Below the pieces are notes generated by a model. The model was given only the letters and a program-made list of their open reading frames with translations, was not told the DNA's origin and did not search any database. Position numbers and translations under genes: made by a program. A DNA stretch of 64,000 nucleotides, from the NCBI GenBank assembly GCA_002928515.1, contig PERI01000006.1:21670-85669 (forward strand), in the 5' to 3' direction. Shown here piece by piece: positions 367-61,094 of the stretch (its first letter is position 1; each line of letters begins with the position of its first letter). This stretch comes from Hyphomicrobium sp. (GTDB taxonomy: Bacteria; Pseudomonadota; Alphaproteobacteria; Rhizobiales; Hyphomicrobiaceae).

Positions 367-2157
367 TTAGGGAGTTTTGCGGCGCGGGAATGCGCGCGTC
401 TCGGTGCCTGCAGCTTTGGCGGCACCTTGCAGTTCGGCACGGAATACGTCGCGCTTTTCGTGGATTGACGCAATGACGAGGCCGGTTGGTACTCCGAGCC
501 CGACGAGTGTGGCCTCCGATAATTGCAAACTGGCTTCTATGTTTTCCGGTACTGCGTCGTTGACGCCGAGTTTATAAAGATGGCTCGCGTGGCTGGCGTC
601 TTTGGCGCGCGAAACAATGAGCAATTTCGGATAGGCCGCGCGCAAGGCCGTGACGATCTGATCGATTTCAGATTGGGTGTGAATGGTGATGATGGCGGCC
701 TTTGCCGTATCTAATCCGCAGTTGTTCAAAAACTCGATTTGGCGCACGTCACCGAAATAAACGGGTTTTCCTTCGCGGCGCATGGCGCCGACGAGGCGCG
801 GATCGCGATCGACGGCGATGTAGGATACGTTGTGTTTTTCCAGCATATCGCCGATGAGCTGGCCGACGCGGCCATGGCCAACGACGAGTGCTGTCGCGGG
901 ATTATCCAGCGAGGGCATGACAGCAAGCTCAGGATCAGGTGCCACCGGCGTCGCTGTGCTTCGAGCCAAGCGTCGCGCAAGGCTCGCAAACAGCGGGATC
1001 AGCGCCATCGATAACGCAACGGACGTCAGCAATATGCTGGTTTCCTGCGGGCTGACGAGTTTGTAGCCTAGTGCCAGCGTAAGAATGACGAAGGCGAATT
1101 CGCCACCAGGGGCCAGCAAACCGGCTGTTTCAAGAGCTGCGGGCCTTGGCACCGAGAACAAGCGTGCCAGTCCGTAAATGACCACAAGCTGAATGACGAT
1201 GTGGCCGAGCGTAATTCCTATGATGTGGATCGGATTGGCCAGCAGCAGGCCGAGATCAATACTCAAGCCGACCGAAAAGAAGAACACGCCGAGGAGTAGC
1301 GATTTCAGTGGTTCGATGGTTGTTTGAACGGCGCGGCGGTATTCCGTTTCGGCTAGCAACAGTCCGGCGACAAATGCGCCAAGCGCCATGGATAAGCCCG
1401 ACGCTGCGGTGGCAAAGCTGGTTCCCACCACGACGAACAATGTGGTGGCGATGAACATGTCCGAATTTTGTGTTTGAGCGACAATGCGAAACATCGGTTG
1501 CAGGACGTAGCGACCGACGCCCACAATAATCACAAGAGCGGCGATGGCTTGGATGAGGGCCAGGACGATGCCGCTTGCGAGAGAGCCGTTCGCTGTAGGA
1601 TCGAGGACGCCGAGCAGGAATAGGATTGGCACCACGGCTAAATCTTGGAACAGCAAAATTGCAAAGCTGGTTCGCCCTGCCGTGGACGCTAAGCGCTTTT
1701 GTCCGGCGAGATACTCAATGACGATTGCGGTCGAAGAGAGCGATAACGCTGCGCCGATAATCACCGCAGTCGTTGGCGATTGTCCGTACCATATGGCCGA
1801 CAAGGCAATCAGGCTGGTCGAGACCAGAACTTGCATACCACCGAGGCCGAAGACCAAGCGGCGCATCGTGACGAGGCGCTCGAATGATAATTCCAGACCG
1901 ATCAGGAACAAGAGGAAGACGACGCCTAGTTCGGCAATCGCGGCCACGCGCTCGGGACTTGAGACTGTGACCCAGTTCAGGGGCGGAAACGCTCCAGAGA
2001 GCAGCCCAAGCCCGTGTGGGCTGAGTAAAGCGCCAGCGATGAGAAATCCTAGAACCGGGCTGATGCGGTAGCGATGGAGGACCGGCACGACGACGCCCGC
2101 TGTGCCGAGCACAAGCAGGGCATCTTTGTAGGTCGTGTAATCGCTCTCAGCCGCCAT
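367..2157 (-). CDS. KefB/KefC-like CPA2 cation:proton antiporter with C-terminal TrkA-N (KTN) domain
   Basis: About 12 hydrophobic helices, LSSTAIV and LLFQDLAVVP CPA2 motifs, then a GHGRVGQ Rossmann motif and YFGD of a KTN domain. Confidence 0.9.
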   Translation of the reverse strand: MAAESDYTTYKDALLVLGTAGVVVPVLHRYRISPVLGFLIAGALLSPHGLGLLSGAFPPLNWVTVSSPERVAAIAELGVVFLLFLIGLELSFERLVTMRRLVFGLGGMQVLVSTSLIALSAIWYGQSPTTAVIIGAALSLSSTAIVIEYLAGQKRLASTAGRTSFAILLFQDLAVVPILFLLGVLDPTANGSLASGIVLALIQAIAALVIIVGVGRYVLQPMFRIVAQTQNSDMFIATTLFVVVGTSFATAASGLSMALGAFVAGLLLAETEYRRAVQTTIEPLKSLLLGVFFFSVGLSIDLGLLLANPIHIIGITLGHIVIQLVVIYGLARLFSVPRPAALETAGLLAPGGEFAFVILTLALGYKLVSPQETSILLTSVALSMALIPLFASLARRLARSTATPVAPDPELAVMPSLDNPATALVVGHGRVGQLIGDMLEKHNVSYIAVDRDPRLVGAMRREGKPVYFGDVRQIEFLNNCGLDTAKAAIITIHTQSEIDQIVTALRAAYPKLLIVSRAKDASHASHLYKLGVNDAVPENIEASLQLSEATLVGLGVPTGLVIASIHEKRDVFRAELQGAAKAAGTETRAFPRRKTP

Positions 2158-2459: not shown

Positions 2460-4691
2460 ATGTTTGGCTTTCGCACACTCGCTCGGCTACTGCGGTCAAC
2501 TCTTCGACTTTTGTTTCGGCGCCAATCCTTGCCCGGGCCCTTCAGCGCGCTGGCCGGCAAAGTTTATCCAAGCACGAAAGTGTCGTCTGTTGCGCCGAGT
2601 GATCTGAAAACGACGCGCACTTCGGGCAGGTTGTCGCGGCTGCCTGTCAAATATCGTTTCGCGATTGCTGTGCCGATTTTGGCTTGTGGCGTAGCGGTTG
2701 CTTCGTTGGCAGGCATGATGGTGTTTTATACCGTCGCCGTTCCCGATCCGCAGATCCTGCGACACAAAGAGCGTGCGCCGGTCGTGCGCATTTTGGCGCG
2801 AGACGGAACGATGCTGGCCGAGCGTGGTGAAGGCAACGACTATATGCCGATCGAACTGTTGCCGCGCCATTTGCAAGCAGCCGTCGTTGCGATTGAGGAT
2901 CGGAGATTTTTTGAGCATTACGGGCTCGATCCGGTCGGACTTTTTCGTGCGTTCTTTCGCAATCTTCGTGCGGGACGGTTTGCGCAGGGTGGTTCGACGC
3001 TGACGCAGCAGTTGGCGAAGAATTTGTTCCTATCGTCCGATCGCAAACTGTCGCGAAAAATCGAAGAGCTGGGTCTGGCGCTTTGGCTAGAGATGCGGCT
3101 CAACAAATCGGAAATTCTGGAACTCTATCTCAATCGCGTTTATTTCGGTGGCGGCGCTTATGGCGTCGAAGCGGCCAGCCAACGCTACTTCGGTAAATCA
3201 GCGCGCGACTTGACGTTGTTGGAAGCGGCGCTCATTGCAGGGCTACTCAAAGCGCCGTCGAAATATTCTCCTGCCTCCAGCCGTGAGCTGGCGCTGGAGC
3301 GTGGTCGCGTTGTGTTGGCGAAAATGGTCGAAGCTGGTTTGATCACGCGAGCCGATCAGTTGGCGGCATCGCATGAGCGCATTGTGTTTGTGAAGCCCAA
3401 AATCACGAAAGTTCGCACCAGCGCCGACTACATTGTCGATTTCGTGCTCGAACAAATGCCACCTTTGGTTTCGGGCGGACATGCCGAAGTGATTGTTGAG
3501 ACGACACTGGATGCCGAACTGCAACGGCAAGCGACTGAGATCGTGGCCAACGGGCTTCAACGCCAAGGTGAAAGTTTACAAGCCAGCCAAGCGGCGCTGG
3601 TCGTGCTCGATAACGATGGCGGCATTCGCGCGATGGTCGGCGGGCGCAATTATGCGGACAGCCAATTCAATCGCGTTGTGAAGGCCAAGCGGCAGCCGGG
3701 ATCGGCCTTCAAGCCGTTCGTGTATTTGGCAGCACTTGAGTCTGGTATGTCTCCGGATTATTTCGTGATGGATATGCCATTGACGATTGGCAATTGGTCA
3801 CCGCGCAACGACAACGGTCAGTATGTGGGAGAGATCACGTTGCGACGCGCCTTGGCGCAATCTGTCAATACGGTTGCTGTTCGATTGATCGAGCACGTTG
3901 GTGTGCAAAATGCGATGGAAGTTGCGCGGCGACTTGGAATTGACTCTGATTTGCGGGATGATCCATCGCTCGCGTTAGGAACATCAGAAGTTTCATTGCT
4001 GGAAATGAGCGGTGCCTATGCTGTGTTCGGTAATGGTGGGATGGCGGTCGATCCCTACATCGTCCGCCGCGTGCATTTGAGTTCGGGCGTTGAGATTTTC
4101 AAACGCGAAACTCAGAGCGCGCATCGCGTGGTGGACGCGCTGAAGGTTGGCGCGATGAACGACATGTTGAACGGTGCCATCGTGTCTGGCACTGGACGTC
4201 GCGCGGCACTTGCTGATTTTCCTGTCGCAGGCAAAACGGGCACGACGCAGGACTTTCGTGACGCTTGGTTTGTTGGATACACGAGCTATTTCACGGCTGG
4301 CATTTGGATCGGCAACGACAACAGTGCGCCGATGAAGAAATCCGTGGGCGGCGGGTTGCCAGCAGAGATGTGGCGGCAGGTGATGCAGGTTGCGCATCGC
4401 GGCAAGGCTCCACAAACTCTCCCTGAGACACGACCCGAGAATGGGCCCGAAGTCGCCGGGCAGAATTTGAGCCCGCGCGTTGCACAAAAGAGTGAGGTAC
4501 TGCCGTGGTTTGCGTCGCGAAGCACACAGACGGCTGCGTCTCATAGTGCCGATCGGAAGACCGATGCGCGCTATCCGCGCGAGGCGATCGATGCCGATTT
4601 TATTGCCGATGTGTTAGCGGAGTTGCCTGATCCAGCGCCCCAAAAGCCTGAGCGTTCTCAAGGTTTGTTATCGCTGGGTGGATGGTGGTGA
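2460..4691 (+). CDS. Class A penicillin-binding protein (PBP1A family, transglycosylase/transpeptidase)
   Basis: TM anchor; GT51 motifs IEDRRF, GGSTLTQQLAKN, RKIEE, YLN; transpeptidase motifs SAFK (SxxK), SVN (SxN), KTG. Confidence 0.93.
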   Translation: MFGFRTLARLLRSTLRLLFRRQSLPGPFSALAGKVYPSTKVSSVAPSDLKTTRTSGRLSRLPVKYRFAIAVPILACGVAVASLAGMMVFYTVAVPDPQILRHKERAPVVRILARDGTMLAERGEGNDYMPIELLPRHLQAAVVAIEDRRFFEHYGLDPVGLFRAFFRNLRAGRFAQGGSTLTQQLAKNLFLSSDRKLSRKIEELGLALWLEMRLNKSEILELYLNRVYFGGGAYGVEAASQRYFGKSARDLTLLEAALIAGLLKAPSKYSPASSRELALERGRVVLAKMVEAGLITRADQLAASHERIVFVKPKITKVRTSADYIVDFVLEQMPPLVSGGHAEVIVETTLDAELQRQATEIVANGLQRQGESLQASQAALVVLDNDGGIRAMVGGRNYADSQFNRVVKAKRQPGSAFKPFVYLAALESGMSPDYFVMDMPLTIGNWSPRNDNGQYVGEITLRRALAQSVNTVAVRLIEHVGVQNAMEVARRLGIDSDLRDDPSLALGTSEVSLLEMSGAYAVFGNGGMAVDPYIVRRVHLSSGVEIFKRETQSAHRVVDALKVGAMNDMLNGAIVSGTGRRAALADFPVAGKTGTTQDFRDAWFVGYTSYFTAGIWIGNDNSAPMKKSVGGGLPAEMWRQVMQVAHRGKAPQTLPETRPENGPEVAGQNLSPRVAQKSEVLPWFASRSTQTAASHSADRKTDARYPREAIDADFIADVLAELPDPAPQKPERSQGLLSLGGWW

Positions 4692-12796: not shown

Positions 12797-13351
12797 TTAC
12801 GCGCGTTCCTTCGCCGGAACGGACGGCGGTGCGAGCGTTATACCGATAGGCATTTCGACTTCAGTGCGTTCGCGGCGGCGTGGTGCTGCCGGTTGGAAGG
12901 CGCGCCGGGCGTGAACTTCGCAATAGGGTAGTCCCAAAACTTTATTGCGACCGCAGAAGTGGAAGTCACTCATTTGTGGGTCGCCAATCGGCCAGCGACA
13001 ACTGCATTCTGTGAGTGTTTGAATGGATTTGCGTTCCGCCAATGGAATTTCGATTTCTTCCACGGGCTGCACATATGTTTCTGCATCCATTGAATAGAGC
13101 GCGCGCACAGCCGGATTTCCGGCCTGGGCAAAACGCGGTTTGGCGAGCCTTTTGGCATTGGCCAGGCGTGCGCGCGGACGATGCGTTTTCATACGCGACG
13201 TCGTTGCTCGACCTGACAGCCCAAGGCGATGCACCTTGCCAATGACGGCATTGCGCGTGACGCTGCCAAGACGTCCGGCAATTTGGCTGGCGCTCAGCCC
13301 TTCCGACCAGAGCTTTTTCAAAAGCTCAACCCGATCATCTGTCCAAGACAT
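12797..13351 (-). CDS. gcrA: Cell-cycle regulator GcrA
   Basis: MSWTDDRVELLKKLWSEGLSASQIA..LG.VTRNAVIGKVHRLGL and CRWPIGDP...FHFCG...GLPYCEVH. Start at ATG 13351 (ORF track 13465). Confidence 0.95.
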   Translation of the reverse strand: MSWTDDRVELLKKLWSEGLSASQIAGRLGSVTRNAVIGKVHRLGLSGRATTSRMKTHRPRARLANAKRLAKPRFAQAGNPAVRALYSMDAETYVQPVEEIEIPLAERKSIQTLTECSCRWPIGDPQMSDFHFCGRNKVLGLPYCEVHARRAFQPAAPRRRERTEVEMPIGITLAPPSVPAKERA

Positions 13352-13936
13352 ACGTTGTCGCTCCCTGTCGAGCCGCAATTCAGCGGCGGTGCACCCCCCG
13401 GTGCCCGCAGAAAACCGTTCGCTATCGACCGAACGACGCACGCGTTTTTGCAAACGCGACAGCATCGGACGCCGAACACGACCGGGTTACAAACGCAGAA
13501 CTGTTTGGAAACGCAGGACAAATAACGCGCTCATACAACGCGGGCTGCCCCAACACAGGCGCCCAGAACGCGGCTTAACCCAACAAAAAACCGATGTTCA
13601 GCACAACTGGCCGCCACATCTCGTGGGTCAACGGAGGTAAATTACAACATGCTGAATCCCTTCTACAAGACGAGCTTTTGTTTTCGCAGGCGTTGACAGG
13701 GAGCCGTTGCCGCGCCGCAACAGATTGATTCGTGACAGTGGATATGTACGTGAAAGCATCACATGACGTTTTGGATACTGCGCGCGTGCTCTTGCAACGC
13801 CGGAAAACCCAATCAAGTCTGGCTTTTTGAACGGTGCTCCGCGTTGACAGCGTCATGCTCGACGCGTATCTAATGAAGGAACAGGGCCGCCAGGATTGGG
13901 CGGCTTTTTGATTTTGTGCACGAGGTTCACTGACGC

Positions 13937-15199
13937 ATGTCCGGGACTTCTGCGGTGCAGGGTAAGATCGCTGCGACCGCTTCCCCGAAGGGCTACGCCT
14001 CGAAATCCGAGGCTTCCGACATCGTGATGGGCACATACGCTCGTCAGGACATTGTTTTTGCGCGCGGTGAAGGTGTCTGGCTGATTGCCGACAGCGGTGA
14101 GCGCTTCCTCGATTTCGGCTCTGGCGTCGCGGTCAATAATTTGGGTCATGCTCATCCCCGCCTCGTGGCGGCGCTGGCTGAGCAGGCGGGAAAACTCTGG
14201 CACACATCCAATCTTTATCGTGTCGAAGGCCAAGAGACCGTCGCGGCGCGATTGGCTGAACTCACGTTCGCTGAGAAAATTTTCTTTTGTAATTCGGGTG
14301 CGGAAGCCTGCGAGGGCGCGATCAAGGTCGCACGTCGGTATCAGTTCGTGTCCGGTCATCCCGAGCGCCAGCGCATTATTACATTCAGCGGCGCTTTTCA
14401 TGGGCGCACGTTGGCAACGTTGGCTGCGGGCGGCAACGAAAAATATCTCGAAGGATTTGCGCCGACAGCCGACGGGTTCGACAATCTTCCCTTCGGCGAT
14501 CATGCGGCATTGGAAGCTGCGATCACGCCTGCGACGGCTGCCATCATGATCGAGCCTGTGCAAGGTGAGGGTGGTGTGCGCCAAGTGCCTGCGCAATGCC
14601 TGCAAGGTTTGCGTACGTTATGCGATCAGCATGGTCTGCTCCTCATATTCGATGAAGTGCAAACCGGCATTGGCCGTTCGGGCAAATTATTCGCGCACGA
14701 GTGGGCTGGCGTGACGCCAGATGTGATGGCGGTGGCGAAGGGGCTGGGCGGTGGCTTCCCAGTCGGCGCGGTGCTGGCCACTGCGGAAGCGGCCAAAGGC
14801 ATGACTCCGGGCACGCACGGCTCGACGTTCGGTGGCAATCCGCTGGCGATGGCTGTGGCGTCCGCTGTTATCGATGTGGTCACAGAAGCCGGATTTCTTG
14901 AAGATGTGCAGATGAAGGCGCTGCGTTTGAAGCAGGGTCTCGCCAGTCTCAAAGATCGCTTTCCAAGCGTCGTCGAGGATGTGCGCGGCGTCGGGTTGCT
15001 GACCGGCTTGAAACTCACGTCTGGTATTGCACCGGCTGCTCTCGTCAAAGCCGCACTCGGTGAACATCTGCTGCTCGTCGGCGCTGGCGACAACACGGTT
15101 CGCGTGCTGCCGCCATTGATCGCGACTGAATCAGAAATCGCGGATGGCATCGAGCGACTGTCGCGCGCACTTCAATCCGTTGCTCGTGAGCATTCCTGA
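13937..15199 (+). CDS. argD: Acetylornithine aminotransferase
   Basis: [36 protein letters not shown] (PLP lysine), HGSTFGGNP. Confidence 0.95.
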
Positions 15200-21598: not shown

Positions 21599-21687
21599 GT
21601 CAGACAACGCCTTTCGCGCCAATAAAAAACCCGATCTCCAAGGGCACCGGACATGCAAACAGCCGGGCGCGGGACATCGGGGGCGCA

Positions 21688-21748
21688 CTCGGCCTTTTAG
21701 CGACTTATTTAACGTGGCTGCAAGCCGACCGGCCAAAGGACCACGAGT
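21688..21748 (-). ncRNA. SAM-II (SAM-alpha) riboswitch upstream of metZ
   Basis: Minus strand reads CGUGGuccuuugGCCGGUCGGCUUGCAGCCACGUUAAAUAAGUCGCUAAAAGGCCG, matching the alphaproteobacterial SAM-II pattern (CGUGG/CCACG stem, UUGCAG, GCUAAA), in front of a methionine biosynthesis gene. Confidence 0.9.
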
Positions 21749-21840
21749 GATGCGTGGGGATACCGCCCACCGCCCGCGGCGTCAAGGCTTGGCGTTGTCG
21801 GCCGCATCGGTTAGAGCGGACACTAGAGAGCGAGGACGAG

Positions 21841-51242: not shown

Positions 51243-51498
51243 GCCTGACGCAATGCCGATCTATTGCAAGCCGCGAAACGGATTGCTGGACAAGCACTGT
51301 AATGGACAAAGTTTACGGCTTCACTCGCGCGAATAGGCGGTTTATTCCGTGCAAGTTCACGGCATCAATGCGGCGCAGACAATATTCACCCGTTATGATC
51401 AACACGCACGATCGCTGCAGCGATCACCTACAAGTTATTCATAAGGACAAACAGACCTACACCGATCGCAGGACCCAAAAGGGTCGCACATAACATTA

Positions 51499-51520
51499 CA
51501 AAAAATGGCTTAGCCGCCAT
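51499..51520 (-). terminator. Possible short intrinsic terminator
   Basis: Minus strand ATGGC-GGCTAA-GCCAT-TTTTT; only a 5-bp stem. Confidence 0.35.
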
Positions 51521-51973
51521 GACACTCTACCCCGCACACAAGCCTTCAATCACACAATTTACGCCACAGAACCCGGAAGTCCCTCTCCGCGTTCCAAACA
51601 CATTCCGAGATTTGCGAGCCACATATCAAATCTCAGGTCAGTCGAAGCCCTCCGCCGACAATTTGATATGACATACTCCTAAAGTGCTTGACAGAGCCTT
51701 GTGTGATTTGCGTTGCGCAGCGTCGACTTCAGGCCACGCTCTGGAAGGTTTGAAATGAACGGCATATAGACGCTATAAATTGCGTCATCTCTGAATTGAA
51801 TCTCGTAGCTATTTCATGGGCCTGGGTAAGACTATTCTAAAAGGCGGATTTCTTCGCGCGTGAGCATTTCGCGTCGCAACATCACGGACCCACGCAAAAG
51901 CTGAAATAAGAATTGATCGCAGCGGTGTATTTGCGCATCAGGCAAGACCTTCGCTGTAGCCTTCCTTCATACG

Positions 51974-54900
51974 CTACTTGAGGTCAAAAAGTCGGAGCTG
52001 CCGCTCGTCCAATCCGCGCGTTTCGGCAGCCAGTTGTTCGATCCGATCGAATGGCACCTGCTCGGCAGAAATCAACGAACGCTGTGCCTTCATCGGTCGC
52101 ACAAGACCTTCTTGCACGAGATGGAATTCGCCGACCGTTTGGCCTGGCAGAGACGTGGTTGGGTCGAGGCCCGATTCCGATTGGAATGCGGCTTTCAATT
52201 TGCGCAAGGCTGTGTCTTCACGCACGCGGCCGATGAACCAGCTCGTGATCTGATCGCGGCTCTTATAGTCGAGGTCGCCGGGCGATTGGGTAGCGAGCAT
52301 CATGCCGAGACCAGCCGAGCGCGCGCGCTTCAACAGGCTTTGCAGTGGCTCTGCCGTTGCCGGTTTGGAGTTGGCTGGAATGTAAAGATCGGCTTCGTCG
52401 AACATGACCACGGCTTGCAGTTCGTCGTTCGGGTTGCGCTGACAGAAGCGCAAGGCCTCCGATAGGAACTGCGAGACCCAGAACAGAATATTTTCGTTGT
52501 CGCCAAGGAAGCCGGTGTAGATCACCGACAAGCGTGTGCGGTTCGGGCGCTGATATTTGCCCAAGCCCAACAGGCTATCCATGCGCAAGCTTTCACCACC
52601 GCCTTCAAACAAAGCGGCGTTGCGCAGACGTAAGCTATCCAGCTGCGCGACGAGATCGCGGCGCAGTTTGCCGGACGGGTCCATGCGCTGCGTTTGGTCT
52701 GTCAATTCGGGATGCTCGTCTTCGAGCATGTGGATGAGATCGGTCAGCGTCACTTCAGCGGTGCTGAGGGTGCCAAGAATCCGCAGTGCGACGGCTAATA
52801 CGCCCGACTGCTTCTGGTGCGTGGCGGAATTCTTCAGATGCAGCATGTCGCCGAGGGCGGCAGCCGAAAGGTTGGCGAGCAACTGTTGCTCGTGCTCGGG
52901 CAGTTCGTTGATGCCGTTCGGCAGCAGCGTGATTGAGATCGGACGTCCTGAAGATCGTCCGGGCGTATAAACAGCGACGTCAATCGCATCGGCGAGTTTT
53001 TCGCGTTCTGCTTTGCGCTCAGGCGTATCGCTATCGTTGGCGCGCCAGACATCGGGGTTTGCGTAGCTCGCCAAGTCGCCCTTACGGTCGATCAGTACGG
53101 CTGGAATTCCGCGCAGCAAAAGCTGCTCGATGAGCGATAGCGCGAGCGTGGTTTTACCCGAGCCGGAGCCGCCGAGAAACGCTGCGTGGCGCTTCAAGAT
53201 ACTTTTATTGAGCGTGACAGGCTTAGCGCGTTGGCCAATTTCGCGGCCCGACATAATGCTCGATCCGTAGGTGCCGTTCTCGTCGAGGATCATGGACAAC
53301 GGTAGTTCGTCGTCATTCGCGGGCAGATTGACATCAGCAACGGCATCGCTCGACATTGTGTGCGATTTGTCAGCGAAATGATCGTGCGCTGAGTTTGGAT
53401 CGTCCATGTCTTTTTGCACGAGGCGGGGCACGGGTCGCCCGAGCAAATCCAACCGCAACAGATGCACAATCGACAGTAGGCTCGAAAGAGGTTTGGTCCC
53501 TTCCAGCCACTGCATCATGCCCGCGTCGCCGCGATGATGCGCCGTGAACTCGCGCACCGTCATCATGCGTTCCCACTCTGGGATCGGCACCAGCAACTGA
53601 CGGCCGCCGCCATCGCGGAATTTGCGGAATGCTTGAGCGGTTTGATTTTTTTTGTTGGGCGGAAAGTCGCTGGCGCGCAGCATGAAACAAGGCTTGCCCT
53701 GCATCGCCATGAGCACTTTATCGAGCTGTCGTTTCAATCCGCCGCCTTGCGTCGGCCGATTGCACAGGAATACGCGCACGTCGCTGGCAAAACCGGTTCG
53801 GTGGCGCACGGTGAGATCGAATGCCGGCAAGTCTTCGCCGAGTTCAAGGCGCTTGACCGTTACGTCGATGGCTTTGCCCCACTCGTCGCGGGCAAGCAGG
53901 AGGCCAGCCGATAGAACATCGACCAGTTCCTGATCGTCGGTCGGCATTTCAGCTTCGCTCTCATTGGCAAAGCGCTCCCACATTTCGCGGAATTGCACGG
54001 CCGATAAAGCGTTCGGTGGGTCTTCTTCGGCGTGTCCGAAGCCGACAGCTTGGCCGAGTGCTTGCGCCAGCGTGCTGATGAACGATGGCTTGCTCGTCTC
54101 GGCGTCGCCGTCTGTATCGTCGCTGTCACTGCCGGTTGCCTCGCGCAGACGGGTTTGTGCGTGTTCGAGCAAGCGGCGTGTCGAAAGCCCAGCAAATTCT
54201 TCGAAGAACTGCGGTCCGAAAAACTGCGAGGCATCCGGGAAGCTCATGCCTCCGCCACTGATTTCAGCTTGGTGGGCAATGCGCTTTGAGATGATTAAGC
54301 GCGCTTCTTCGGGCGTGCGGCTTTCGCGCAGCAATACCGGGCCAGACTTTTCGATGCGGTCTATGTAGGACTGCGAAATCAGGCCGCGAACTTGGCCGTA
54401 GAAATCTTCCAAACACGAAATCACAATGATCGCGTTGGTCAGCCGATTAGCGATTTGAATCAGATCGCGCACGGCGCGCTGGAAGCGTTCCTCAGCGTTG
54501 TCAAAAAAGCGTAAATCTTCGACTTGATCGATGCAGAACACGAGTGCTGCGCGATCGACACTCCAAATCAGCGAGCCAAGCGCGGCGATGATTTCGAAGG
54601 CGCGATCCTCACCCGTATTCGGGTCCAGCGCACGCACCGCTTCGAGCGCGATCGGCGTCAACTGTCGGCCGTGCAAATACTGTCTGATGCGCTGATCGAT
54701 GCGCGGATCGCGACGCTGCATGTAGAGCAACGCGCGCACGATATTGATATCGACTTCGCGCGTTTGAAAGCGCTCGCTGGCGACGATGTCATCGGCCAAT
54801 CGTAAAATCAGTCTGGCTAAGCCTTCATCGTCCAACTGCGCGTCGCGAAGCTGGTCGAGATCGGCGGCCGAGATCACCTCGCTATCGAGCACGAGCTTAT

Positions 54901-55339
54901 TGGTCAGTCGTGACAACGCGCTTTCGCCAAAGCGGTCTGGGTCATAGGGCTTTTCCAGAGAATGGACGAGGCGGCGCAGATAGAAGTCGGCGTAGTTCGA
55001 TACGTCGGGCGTCATTTGTGCGTAACCAAAGTACGCTTGCCCCGTGCGATGCGTTGCAGTGCGCAGGGCCCGCACGAGATGCGTTTTGCCGGCACCCGAT
55101 TGGCCGTGAAATAGGAGGATGCGCTCTTGAACGTGGAATCCACGACCTGACGTGACGGTGGTGATCAAGTCATTGAACTTTTGGCGTGCTTTCGCGTGCA
55201 CCTCAGGGACGTCGACAGGGTCGGCACGCCATAGATCATCTTCCCAGGTGATCGAATGCTCAAACGCCTCGCTCAGCTTGTCTGGCGCGAGTTGCGGAGC
55301 ATAGGAGGTTTTTTTCAATGGACTGCTTTCGACACCCAT
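51974..55339 (-). CDS. Dual-NTPase protein: N-terminal AAA+-like P-loop plus C-terminal HerA/FtsK-like (DUF87/DUF853-type) ATPase
   Basis: N-terminal GQSGAGKT and VFCIDQVE; C-terminal GGSGSGKT, LIDRKGD, VMFDEAD, KRARSAGLGMMLATQSPGDL. Start moved to ATG 55339 (ORF track 55384). Confidence 0.85.
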   Translation of the reverse strand: MGVESSPLKKTSYAPQLAPDKLSEAFEHSITWEDDLWRADPVDVPEVHAKARQKFNDLITTVTSGRGFHVQERILLFHGQSGAGKTHLVRALRTATHRTGQAYFGYAQMTPDVSNYADFYLRRLVHSLEKPYDPDRFGESALSRLTNKLVLDSEVISAADLDQLRDAQLDDEGLARLILRLADDIVASERFQTREVDINIVRALLYMQRRDPRIDQRIRQYLHGRQLTPIALEAVRALDPNTGEDRAFEIIAALGSLIWSVDRAALVFCIDQVEDLRFFDNAEERFQRAVRDLIQIANRLTNAIIVISCLEDFYGQVRGLISQSYIDRIEKSGPVLLRESRTPEEARLIISKRIAHQAEISGGGMSFPDASQFFGPQFFEEFAGLSTRRLLEHAQTRLREATGSDSDDTDGDAETSKPSFISTLAQALGQAVGFGHAEEDPPNALSAVQFREMWERFANESEAEMPTDDQELVDVLSAGLLLARDEWGKAIDVTVKRLELGEDLPAFDLTVRHRTGFASDVRVFLCNRPTQGGGLKRQLDKVLMAMQGKPCFMLRASDFPPNKKNQTAQAFRKFRDGGGRQLLVPIPEWERMMTVREFTAHHRGDAGMMQWLEGTKPLSSLLSIVHLLRLDLLGRPVPRLVQKDMDDPNSAHDHFADKSHTMSSDAVADVNLPANDDELPLSMILDENGTYGSSIMSGREIGQRAKPVTLNKSILKRHAAFLGGSGSGKTTLALSLIEQLLLRGIPAVLIDRKGDLASYANPDVWRANDSDTPERKAEREKLADAIDVAVYTPGRSSGRPISITLLPNGINELPEHEQQLLANLSAAALGDMLHLKNSATHQKQSGVLAVALRILGTLSTAEVTLTDLIHMLEDEHPELTDQTQRMDPSGKLRRDLVAQLDSLRLRNAALFEGGGESLRMDSLLGLGKYQRPNRTRLSVIYTGFLGDNENILFWVSQFLSEALRFCQRNPNDELQAVVMFDEADLYIPANSKPATAEPLQSLLKRARSAGLGMMLATQSPGDLDYKSRDQITSWFIGRVREDTALRKLKAAFQSESGLDPTTSLPGQTVGEFHLVQEGLVRPMKAQRSLISAEQVPFDRIEQLAAETRGLDERQLRLFDLK

Positions 55340-55356
55340 GCGGAACAGACAACCTT

Positions 55357-56520
55357 TTAGTCTTCGACGCGCACAAAATGCCAAACAGTGTTTTTGTAGA
55401 GGATCTTGGAATCCTCCAGTTGCTTGAGATCACACCGGTCTTTGAGATCGGCGCCAGCTAGAACGACGTGTCCAGAGCGGTGCGCTTCCGCAAGCATGCC
55501 CTTGAAAGCAACTTCGGTGAGCTCCCAGTCCGGGCGCGTGTGCCGAATCGCTTGCCATACCAAAGAGATAAACGCCTTCCGGTTGCCTGGCCAGCCCTCG
55601 GATATCGGGCGTGCCGCATCTACAACAGCGCCAGCGAATTCAGTCATGTCGGGCGTCTGTGAGACGCGCTTGTTATTGAGCGTCTCGTCGGAAATGGCGT
55701 GCTGATCGTTATCGGGGCGCGGCGCAGGCTTGCGTGGATCTGTTTTGGCGCGAAGCGCTACCGGTTCAGGTGCCAGGGCGGCAACCTGGGGTGCCTGCGA
55801 GGTCAAGCGCCGAATGAGGGCGATCTTGAGTGCGTCGAGGCTGCTGTCGGTGGCCCCCGTCACTTCGCAGGCCAACCCGACGATGAGTTTGCCATCGGTC
55901 GAGACTTCACGTGGCGATTTGAAGAGTTGGCCAGCTAGCAAACGCCCAGCTTTGGCAGGTAGCCCGGAGCCTTTGCCAAGACCAGTTTTGATCTTGTTTC
56001 CGAACGCGCGTTCGAGCGCCAGGATCGCAAGTTCGGCGCGCAGATCGGTCGGCGACAAGAGCCGTTTCGGCAAGATTGCGAAGTGCTGTTGCAACACGAG
56101 ACAGCTTAGCCCTTCGAGGCGATCCAATGCTTTTGCAATTTGGCCTGTGACGTTTGTCAGCCCTAGAGAACGCGCCACAAGAGCGTTGCAGACATTGCTC
56201 CAACCGCCTTTGAATGTCGTCGATCGATCGATCAGACGTTCCGCTTCGGTCACTCCAGAGGCTGTCGCGAGCAACCGACTTTTGCTGTCGGTGATCAGGT
56301 TGGCATCGACAAAGCCACCTATGGCACGTTCGGCTGCTTGCCGGAATGCCGTGCCAGATGACGATTTAGGGCCCGTGAGTTTTGCGAGGTCTCTTTGTAG
56401 CTCAGCCCGTGTCGCGCCATCTGCTGCGATCCTGAGCAAAACCAAATCAGCGATCGACAAGCTCGCGGTACCAAGTGTGGGCTCCGTGCCGCGTCGGGCA
56501 CGACTCATTGCCGCCGTCAT
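55357..56520 (-). CDS. Hypothetical protein with predicted winged-helix domains, partner of the dual ATPase
   Basis: N-terminal helix-helix-wing pattern (LVLLRI...TRAELQRDL...FVDANLI...LLATASG); C-terminal FISLVWQAI...FKGMLAEAHRSGHVVLAGADL...TVWHFVRVE. Ends 17 bp before the ATPase start. Start ambiguous (56652/56520/56508). Confidence 0.7.
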   Translation of the reverse strand: MTAAMSRARRGTEPTLGTASLSIADLVLLRIAADGATRAELQRDLAKLTGPKSSSGTAFRQAAERAIGGFVDANLITDSKSRLLATASGVTEAERLIDRSTTFKGGWSNVCNALVARSLGLTNVTGQIAKALDRLEGLSCLVLQQHFAILPKRLLSPTDLRAELAILALERAFGNKIKTGLGKGSGLPAKAGRLLAGQLFKSPREVSTDGKLIVGLACEVTGATDSSLDALKIALIRRLTSQAPQVAALAPEPVALRAKTDPRKPAPRPDNDQHAISDETLNNKRVSQTPDMTEFAGAVVDAARPISEGWPGNRKAFISLVWQAIRHTRPDWELTEVAFKGMLAEAHRSGHVVLAGADLKDRCDLKQLEDSKILYKNTVWHFVRVED

Positions 56521-56805
56521 GTCGTGGCTTTGGTCATTGTTGGCACCTCGCCCTAGCGAATCAGTATGATCTCGCGGCTGGAGTGTCTGGTATTCGCGGC
56601 TGCGTTCCAAGGGGCGGAGACGCAAAATTCGCGTTTGCGGCCGTACGGTCAAAATAGCGACATGTTGTTGAGACGAATGTATATTTGGGTGGGTATTGGT
56701 TGGGACAGATGCACGGCAAAATTGAGCATTATCAACGCTACAGCTTGCGGGTAGGCGCAGGTGCGCGCGCCCACACTGCGGAATATTGCGGCTGGCGCAT
56801 TAGCG

Positions 56806-56821
56806 TTAACGGCGGGTTAAC
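56806..56821. promoter_or_regulatory. CtrA-binding box (TTAA-N7-TTAAC, perfect on both strands)
   Basis: gTTAAcggcgggTTAAC, in the divergent promoter region between the wHTH-ATPase pair and the CAP gene. Confidence 0.65.
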
Positions 56822-56875: not shown

Positions 56876-57529
56876 ATGTATCGCGTCATCCTCATTGCTG
56901 CTGTTGCATCCGGATTGGCAGGGTGCAGTTTAGGGTCCGCTTCGCTTTCGTCTGGCATTCCCGACAGCGTGTCGACCTCTGCCATCTCGAAAAAATCATC
57001 CAACAGTGTCGGTCTTGGCGGCGATCCTTCCGCTCGGCGCGGAACGCAGTTGGCAAAACTCGATGACAAAGCTCCGGCCGGTACCTTTGAGCGTGCACCG
57101 AATGGCATCCTTTCCGATCGGGATTACTCGCGCACGCAGCTCGACGCGGAGATGGCGCGTGATCTCGTCAATTCCTATCGTAAAGAAAAGGGCCTGAAGC
57201 CGTTGCGCTTGAGTCCGGAATTGACCGAAGCTGCGAAACTCCATTCGCGCGACCTTTCCAAATGGGATCGCATTTCCCACTACGGCTCTGATGGATCCAA
57301 CCCTTGGGATCGCGTGAAACGCACGGGCTATAAAGCACGCCTTGCTGCAGAAAACGTCGGAACCGGGCAAATCGATTTCAATGAAGTCATGCGCGGGTGG
57401 AAAGATAGCCCTGGCCACAACAAGAATTTGCTCATGGCGGATGCGGACCACATGGGTATCGCGCTCGTGCAGGATCCAAAAACAGAATTCAAATCGTTCT
57501 GGACGCTCGTTATCGGCGCGCCGATGTAA
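56876..57529 (+). CDS. CAP (SCP/YkwD) domain lipoprotein
   Basis: Lipobox LAGC; NSYRKEKGLKPL, AAKLHSRD, SHYGSDGS, AENVG, WKDSPGHNKNLL, WTLVIG. Confidence 0.9.
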   Translation: MYRVILIAAVASGLAGCSLGSASLSSGIPDSVSTSAISKKSSNSVGLGGDPSARRGTQLAKLDDKAPAGTFERAPNGILSDRDYSRTQLDAEMARDLVNSYRKEKGLKPLRLSPELTEAAKLHSRDLSKWDRISHYGSDGSNPWDRVKRTGYKARLAAENVGTGQIDFNEVMRGWKDSPGHNKNLLMADADHMGIALVQDPKTEFKSFWTLVIGAPM

Positions 57530-61008: not shown

Positions 61009-61094
61009 TGGTGCCTCTGGAGGGACTCGAACCCCCACACCCTTGCGAATAGCAGATTTTGAGTCTGCCGCGTCTACCGTTCCGCCACAGAGGC
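61009..61094 (-). tRNA. tRNA-Leu (CAA)
   Basis: GCCTCTG/CAGAGGC acceptor stem plus encoded ACCA, D-loop GGCGGAACGGTAGAC, anticodon arm GCAGA-CTCAAAA-TCTGC, long variable arm, GGTTCGAGTCC T-loop; 86 nt. Confidence 0.97.

Follow-up and report, generated by a model that had tools for sequence, protein, structure and literature searches.

A core operon of Hyphomicrobiaceae and sister families encoding a double ATPase and a winged-helix partner: a candidate domesticated DNA motor

What does a large protein with two ATPase modules, encoded immediately downstream of a smaller protein with a predicted DNA-binding domain, do for a hyphal budding bacterium? The question is raised by a two-gene locus in a 64,000-nucleotide stretch of Hyphomicrobium sp. 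DNA (assembly GCA_002928515.1, contig PERI01000006.1, positions 21,670 to 85,669), referred to here as the window. An earlier note on this DNA had singled the locus out as an undescribed system and offered two models for it: (a) a minimal anti-phage or anti-plasmid system in which the smaller protein recognises DNA and loads or triggers the motor, and (b) a housekeeping DNA-transport machine that could help to move the chromosome through a hypha or bud neck. Here we describe the pair as a single-copy, syntenic, vertically inherited core operon of the Hyphomicrobiaceae and about ten sister families, restricted to those families among everything sampled. We argue, with a probability that we put at roughly 60%, that it encodes a domesticated, nuclease-less Orc/Cdc6–HerA DNA motor with a dedicated winged helix-turn-helix (wHTH) adaptor, probably expressed with the cell cycle and acting on the cell's own DNA.

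A core operon of one clade

Two open reading frames (ORFs) on the minus strand occupy positions 51974–56652 of the window, 56652 being the right-hand bound of the longest frame, which is TTG-started. The most likely start of the upstream gene (the partner gene, or geneA) is an ATG at 56520, giving a protein of 387 amino acids (aa) encoded at 55357–56520 (minus strand, stop codon included); the N-termini of its orthologues (MTAA… or MSAA…) agree with this choice. The gene for the 1121 aa double ATPase follows at 51974–55339 (minus strand, stop codon included). The partner stop codon lies at 55357–55359 and the ATPase ATG at 55339, which leaves the gap of 17 nucleotides (nt) given in the earlier note, and this gap contains no terminator-like site. 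The GC content of the locus equals that of its flanks. The two genes form a real operon that is fixed in the chromosome.

Co-occurrence of the two genes had been proposed as a check on the system, and it is complete: in all 79 loci with enough flanking sequence, the partner gene lies directly upstream of the ATPase gene on the same strand. Pairwise distances between partners and between ATPases are correlated (r = 0.86), that is, the two genes co-diverge. The ATPase is found in all 24 other genomes of the genus that were sampled. Of 401 genomes from the GTDB family 388 carry it, among them 251 of the 253 of high quality, and 50 of the family's 51 genera are represented. A wider sample of the order gave 26 positive genomes out of 196, distributed over about eleven families, and every sampled member of a positive family was itself positive. 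Further afield, no orthologue of the whole ATPase was detected in 200 other alphaproteobacteria (E ≤ 1e-60), and 299 other Pseudomonadota searched with a profile of the N-terminal half gave no match (E ≤ 1e-6).

A survey of 185,579 species genomes (one genome per species) identified 374 carriers. The labels of 80 of these are Hyphomicrobium, Filomicrobium, Hyphomicrobiaceae, Methyloligellaceae and Methyloligella, together with one metagenome-assembled genome (MAG) labelled “Rhodomicrobium sp.”, unclassified relatives and a few probable mislabels. The operon of three loci is of the typical Hyphomicrobiaceae type, with a partner ~42–45% identical to that of the window, although L085 (JBNOAI010000009.1) is labelled Leptospira interrogans LS0056 and both L057 and L078 are labelled Devosia; these assemblies are probably contaminated or mislabelled. 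A mobile-element origin was considered and rejected: searches of a plasmid collection (with the full-length ATPase, its N-terminal half and the partner), of phages and of IMG/VR returned no relative.

ATPase identity declines stepwise with taxonomic distance, from 84–92% within the genus through 71–77% within the family to 52–58% against other families. A complete genome of the same genus is collinear with the window over its full 64 kb. Compared with its orthologue in genome G021, the ATPase is 86.6% identical and ranks fourth among the 39 orthologue pairs of the collinear block. Identities in this set run from 34% to 92%, most of them between 58% and 83%, with the neighbours of the operon at about 70%; the partner, at 55%, is among the lowest of the 39. 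Purifying selection on the motor is very strong.

Domain make-up of the two proteins

The earlier note's description of a dual ATPase is borne out. An AAA+ module lies towards the N-terminus of the protein and a HerA/FtsK-type module at the C-terminus, each with its own Walker motifs, and the modules are separated by acidic linkers of variable sequence. Both Walker A/B pairs are invariant across 21 orthologues. The AAA+ module (residues 46–400; 54140–55204, minus strand) is Orc/Cdc6/BrxC-like (STAND-like), matching the Pfam families AAA_22 (7e-11), AAA_16 and nSTAND1. When its AlphaFold model was compared with known structures by Foldseek, the matches included ORC2 (1w5s, probability 0.99), BrxC (9zll and 9zdx, 0.96–0.99) and TnsC (8fcu, 0.99). 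The Walker A motif is GQSGAGKT (residues 79–86) and the Walker B motif is DQVED (271–275).

The HerA/FtsK-type module (residues 691–1121; 51977–53269, minus strand) is recognised by the Pfam families DUF87 (2.9e-11) and HerA_C (6.2e-9), both above the Pfam cut-offs, and by several PADLOC models, of which mad8 is the best (3e-20) and HerA and DndH also match. The corresponding PDB sequence match is SIR2-HerA (8wiv), the top Foldseek match is the HerA protein of HerA–NurA (9x1m), and the motifs are GGSGSGKTT (723–731) and FDEAD (980–984). This module is 93% identical within the genus, 87% within the family and 71–73% against other families.

Between the two lies a middle domain (residues 446–633; 53441–54004, minus strand) for which AlphaFold predicts, with a predicted local distance difference test (pLDDT) score of 72–89, an alpha-beta-beta-beta-alpha-beta arrangement (helix 469–486, strands 491–499, 505–513 and 518–525, helix 533–545, strand 551–555). 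Its sole Foldseek neighbour is the PD-(D/E)xK nuclease EndoMS/NucS (5gkj, probability 0.91 over 134 columns). No catalytic D…(D/E)xK motif is conserved in the domain, the third strand of which reads RVFLCNR. This match and the predicted topology suggest a degenerate restriction-endonuclease-like fold. Scans of the partner and the ATPase with Pfam, NCBIfam and PADLOC-type libraries detected no nuclease domain in either, and no membrane segment was seen in either protein.

Just ahead of the AAA+ core, residues 26–48 of the ATPase (about 55196–55264, minus strand) contain the invariant peptide F.HSITWEDD.W.ADP.DV..VH, which falls in a low-confidence part of the model. We regard it as a candidate docking motif.

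The partner protein is anonymous: its 993 homologues are without exception unnamed or annotated as ‘hypothetical’, it has no Pfam, NCBIfam, PADLOC or PHROGs match at default cut-offs, and a PDB profile search gave none. The earlier note had predicted a winged helix at each end. At the N-terminus (residues 20–100; 56221–56463, minus strand) the prediction stands, since AlphaFold and Foldseek agree on it: the model comprises helices 23–34, 38–46 and 56–72 and two strands (pLDDT 85–94), with Foldseek domain matches to Sso10a, MotA and MarR-type wHTH domains (probability 0.93–1.0) that identify it as a generic wHTH domain only. A helical domain follows, so that residues 20–240 as a whole are confidently modelled, and residues 243–285 form a disordered linker. 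The second winged helix, at the C-terminus (residues 290–387; 55360–55653, minus strand), is compatible with the model but not proven, the domain being predicted as three confident helices and a low-confidence tail. Weak likenesses of the partner to the kleisins MukF and JetA (best Foldseek E = 0.09–0.75) are non-significant and were not used as evidence.

The two ends of the partner evolve at very different rates. The N-terminal wHTH domain is fast-evolving, with 52% identity within the genus and 21–25% against other families, whereas the C-terminal domain is the most conserved part of the protein (83% and 44–47%, respectively), its low-confidence tail being the best-conserved sequence of all. 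Many distant homologues align with residues 285–387 only. A 724 aa partner without a Pfam domain, encoded in a genome of a distant family (G025; locus L013, 5478–7652, plus strand), has only the C-terminal ~100 residues in common with the Hyphomicrobium protein, a natural domain swap by which the C-terminal domain stands out as the constant module. From these patterns we infer that this domain would serve as the docking module for the ATPase.

Sites upstream of the operon

The sharpest island of conservation upstream of the operon is the heptamer TGATTCG at 56557–56563 (minus strand), 37–43 nt upstream of the partner ATG. In Caulobacter, TGATTCG is the consensus of those CcrM (GANTC) methylation sites that are bound best by GcrA (Haakonsen et al. 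2015, PMC4647560), and the high-ranked methylation site is also given as YGAKTCK (PMC4647560); members of the Caulobacter regulon are defined by such a site at most 40 bp from the transcription start and by lower expression once GcrA is depleted. Such sites are scarce in the window: there are two copies of TGATTCG in the 64 kb where 16.9 would be expected (eightfold depletion) and 58 copies of GANTC where 290 would be expected (fivefold depletion), a strong signature of selection on CcrM sites. The copy upstream of the operon is kept in all 16 aligned intergenic regions between geneA and the divergent CAP-domain gene. Across the clade, 57 of 70 loci have TGATTCG in the sense orientation no more than 260 nt upstream of the partner gene, and 70% of all copies in the loci fall within 3.3% of the sequence, a positional enrichment of ~21-fold. 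The conservation extends to loci that lack the CAP neighbour and to loci from other families, and is newly described here. The window also encodes a GcrA homologue (12797–13465, minus strand; PF07750, 172.6 bits at 12869–13351). Judged by the position and conservation of the heptamer, the operon would be transcribed from a GcrA/CcrM-type promoter and hence be linked to replication and the cell cycle.

The other TGATTCG of the window (13726–13732) lies ~260 nt upstream of gcrA, in an intergenic region shared with the divergent gene 13937–15199, and hints at methylation-dependent control of gcrA or of that gene.

Two further elements emerge from the alignment of the 16 intergenic regions. The conserved element CCCTTGGAAC (56604–56613, minus strand), about 45 nt upstream of TGATTCG, is a candidate −35 region. 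Further upstream, the element CAACAACATGTCGCTATTTTGACC (56647–56670, minus strand) forms another island and is possibly a promoter or operator; its strict pattern recurs in just seven of 53 more distant loci. No alphaproteobacterial LexA box (GTTC-N7-GTTC) was seen by eye upstream of the operon.

The earlier note had leaned on a perfect CtrA box in the upstream region. The box itself is real: TTAA-N7-TTAA occurs twice in the 64 kb against an expectation of 0.15, and the copy at 56806–56820 (strand not assigned) is conserved. It tracks the divergent CAP-domain gene (56876–57529, plus strand), however, and not the operon. We assign it to the CAP gene because it lies at a fixed spacing from that gene (56–60 nt to the ATG in most of the family's loci with a CAP neighbour), because it is mostly absent from loci without a CAP neighbour (stray boxes occur elsewhere in four such loci), and because it is 286 nt or more from the partner start (286 nt here, a distance that varies elsewhere). 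Control of the operon through this box was therefore rejected. The CAP/SCP-domain gene, which flanks the operon divergently in 45 of 80 loci, other families included, is a strong candidate for a CtrA-controlled secreted protein or lipoprotein gene. The window's other perfect TTAA-N7-TTAA (2344–2358) lies between the divergent ORFs 367–2157 (minus strand) and 2460–4691 (plus strand). In one distant orthologue (locus L012, genome G033) a perfect box is found at the junction of the partner stop and the ATPase start (2772–2786), possibly by chance.

What the pair might do

The label of an undescribed system was too strong, for the same architecture had been predicted in silico in 2024 (PMC10853773). 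The predicted ‘capture’ systems are mobile neighbourhoods containing an Orc/CDC6 AAA+ domain, an inactive restriction endonuclease (REase) after it, an active REase, a HerA/FtsK ATPase and wHTH domains (PMC10853773; restated in PMC12839542), sometimes with a separate, fast-evolving multi-wHTH protein that in a subset is related to DndG/SspB (PMC10853773). They are interpreted as capturing and cutting invader DNA, a prediction from comparative genomics only (Nucleic Acids Res 2024, PMC10853773), and Hyphomicrobiaceae are mentioned neither in that paper nor in its supplement.

The Hyphomicrobium pair has the AAA+ domain of the Orc/Cdc6 clade, then what appears to be a nuclease fold without catalytic residues, then the HerA/FtsK ATPase (capture-system modules, too, can be fused in one polypeptide), with a separate protein that carries a fast-evolving wHTH domain alongside. 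It also differs. There is no active REase in either protein or adjoining the operon; the partner has no detectable similarity to the DndG, DptG or SspB models of PADLOC; and instead of being mobile or patchy, the pair is a core operon that one clade inherits vertically, with very strong purifying selection on the motor and a GcrA/CcrM consensus site conserved upstream. Since the active nuclease and the mobile, patchy distribution are both lacking, the pair is not a regular member of the capture class.

A more distant relative suggests how wide the family might be. On the Methylobacterium aquaticum megaplasmid pMaq22A_1p (locus L102, 2184–7233, plus strand) three genes form a translationally coupled operon in which stop and start codons overlap; they encode proteins of 373, 226 and 1084 aa. 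The largest is a distant, collinear homologue of the double ATPase, with 29% identity over the HerA half and 22% over the AAA+ half. Neither of the two smaller proteins matches a Pfam family or resembles the partner in profile comparisons. An operon of this kind, with unrelated small partners, fits a wider family in which the partners are exchangeable.

Other known systems are less similar. As in BREX, the AAA+ module lies near BrxC by Foldseek, and a few orthologues carry a precomputed match to PF10923 (the BrxC/PglY family), but PglZ, PglX, BrxA, BrxB and BrxL are absent among the neighbours, PADLOC gives no Brx or Pgl match and BrxC is not fused to a HerA domain. The HerA-type domain is shared with mad8 of MADS and with SIR2-HerA and DUF4297-HerA (mad8 at 3e-20; 8wiv as the best PDB sequence match), a likeness at the domain level only, since no other gene of the mad1–mad8 operon and no SIR2 or nuclease effector lies nearby; the MADS preprint gives no function for mad8. 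FtsK/SpoIIIE belong to the same ATPase superfamily, and a winged helix could confer sequence or direction specificity in the way that FtsK-gamma does with KOPS. The score for the FtsK family PF01580, however, is 18.1 bits (E = 0.002), below the cut-off of 24; there is no visible membrane anchor and the wHTH domain is on a separate protein. A six-frame search of the genome finds the canonical FtsK on another contig, and the ATPase studied here is absent from that match list; the pair is thus an extra motor. Finally, the archaeal and Deinococcus HerA–NurA end-resection complex supplies the top Foldseek match of the model (HerA, 9x1m), but here the HerA domain lacks NurA or any other nuclease partner and is fused to an Orc/Cdc6-like module.

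The reading that we favour is as follows. The module would have descended from Orc/Cdc6–HerA/FtsK capture conflict systems, subsequently losing its nuclease and being domesticated. The partner would dock on the ATPase via its C-terminal domain, leaving its variable wHTH and helical part to select DNA. The AAA+ and nuclease-like module could then act as an ATP-dependent DNA-binding switch or loader, and the HerA ring would translocate double-stranded DNA. GcrA/CcrM would couple expression to replication and the cell cycle, and the machine would work on the cell's own DNA, in its segregation, clearing, condensation or repair, rather than in classical phage defence. If this is correct, a predicted anti-invader DNA motor has been turned into a core cellular machine, and the operon, with two genes, no nuclease and a tractable genus, offers a clean experimental entry to an Orc/Cdc6–HerA class known so far only in silico. 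The ATPase is in any case among the best-conserved Hyphomicrobiaceae proteins of unknown function, encoded behind a cell-cycle-type promoter site, and the pair is a concrete candidate for a part in how hyphal budding bacteria handle their DNA, a poorly understood process.

Several points weigh against domestication as we have sketched it. Comparative genomics assigns a domain set of this kind to anti-invader systems, the best PADLOC match is to a defence component (mad8) and the DNA-binding end of the partner evolves fast, in the manner of defence-system recognition modules. Core status within a lineage is also found among some defence-like systems. The HerA half of the AlphaFold model is of low confidence, and the nuclease-like label of the middle domain hangs on a single Foldseek match (0.91) together with the topology. 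TGATTCG could bind a factor other than GcrA.

The leading alternative is model (a) in a lineage-fixed form. As a nuclease-less device for defence or exclusion directed at plasmids and phages, the pair would use the wHTH domain to recognise foreign DNA or a replication or transfer intermediate; the motor would then strip or expel the DNA, or recruit a host nuclease encoded elsewhere. Several observations speak for it: the domains are those of the predicted Orc/Cdc6–HerA/FtsK capture systems, the best PADLOC matches are mad8, HerA and DndH, BrxC and SIR2-HerA are among the Foldseek matches, the N-terminal wHTH domain of the partner diverges two to four times faster than the ATPase, and the distant Methylobacterium cousin, with the same layout, is encoded in its three-gene operon on a megaplasmid. 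The distribution contradicts a defence system, and for this reason we disfavour the model. Presence in ~99% of high-quality genomes over more than 50 genera, in single copy, with fixed synteny and with identity that tracks taxonomy, is a core pattern, and the motor is conserved at 87–93%, exceeding almost all of its neighbours. Plasmid, phage and viral-contig collections hold no relatives, and a cell-cycle-type methylation site is conserved upstream.

Nor does the neighbourhood supply an effector. The earlier note had seen no nuclease, methylase, PglZ, integrase or transposase near the locus, and this is correct for the neighbours in the window; nucleases and recognisable defence genes are likewise missing from the surroundings of the 80 related loci and from the window flanks. 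What lies there are genes for metabolism or the envelope, differing from genus to genus (PBP-like synthase, CAP, flippase, MoeA, sulfite-reductase-like, HD-GYP, ABC transporter, phytochrome kinase and others). Taken together, these findings make defence unlikely. Were it nonetheless the answer, these would be unusual immunity genes, conserved at the level of housekeeping genes.

Model (b), the housekeeping DNA machine, fits the evolutionary pattern better than model (a), although the CtrA-box argument made for it was wrong. In its boldest form the favoured reading would make the pair a GcrA/CcrM-timed S-phase motor, domesticated ancestrally in the Hyphomicrobiaceae and their allies, whose wHTH adaptor reads chromosomal sites and which moves DNA, or clears it, through the narrow hypha or bud neck. 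Such a machine would fill the place of the missing motor in the chromosome inheritance of hyphal budding bacteria, and we consider it a long shot.

The plainer proposal, that in hyphal budding bacteria the pair is the motor by which the chromosome is moved or cleared through the hypha or bud neck, is in our view very unlikely. It draws on the host being a Hyphomicrobium, on the pair being a clade-specific core feature of a group that includes Hyphomicrobium, Filomicrobium and the MAG labelled Rhodomicrobium, on the presence of a HerA/FtsK-type motor in addition to the canonical FtsK and on the likely cell-cycle-linked promoter site. Against it, no feature of either protein ties the pair to the hypha, neither a membrane anchor nor a polar-targeting feature being seen, and the CtrA box belongs to another gene. 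The pair is absent from the 200 other alphaproteobacterial genomes, a sample that probably includes stalk-budding Hyphomonadaceae. As far as is known, cultured members of the Methyloligella group divide by binary fission. The occurrence of the pair in MAGs labelled Methyloligellaceae and Methyloligella weakens the link to hyphal transport.

That the HerA/FtsK ring instead works on a substrate other than DNA, in the secretion or remodelling of proteins or nucleoproteins in the manner of VirB4 or EccC and possibly tied to the envelope neighbours, is hardly tenable: weak profile matches to coupling proteins of type IV secretion systems and to VirB4, a Foldseek match to the Legionella type IV coupling complex and the PBP-like, CAP, flippase and DD-carboxypeptidase genes around the Hyphomicrobium operon are offset by the fact that the profile matches are at the P-loop level only and far under the family cut-offs, that neither protein has a visible membrane segment and no secretion genes are present, that the envelope neighbours are not kept beyond the genus and its close relatives, and that DNA is indicated by the Orc/Cdc6-like and nuclease-fold domains fused to the ring as well as by the wHTH partner.

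Downstream of the operon, a 730-nt gap of low GC content (about 51%) at 51243–51973 separates the ATPase stop codon from the start of the PBP-like gene. It contains no credible ORF and no Rfam match, and two terminator-like hairpins lie within it (51456–51520, minus strand); the gap may be a long leader or promoter region of the PBP-like gene. The Rfam scan found nothing within or near the operon, and its only two matches in the window are a SAM_alpha riboswitch at 21677–21754 (minus strand, 71.9 bits) and a tRNA gene at 61012–61094 (minus strand).

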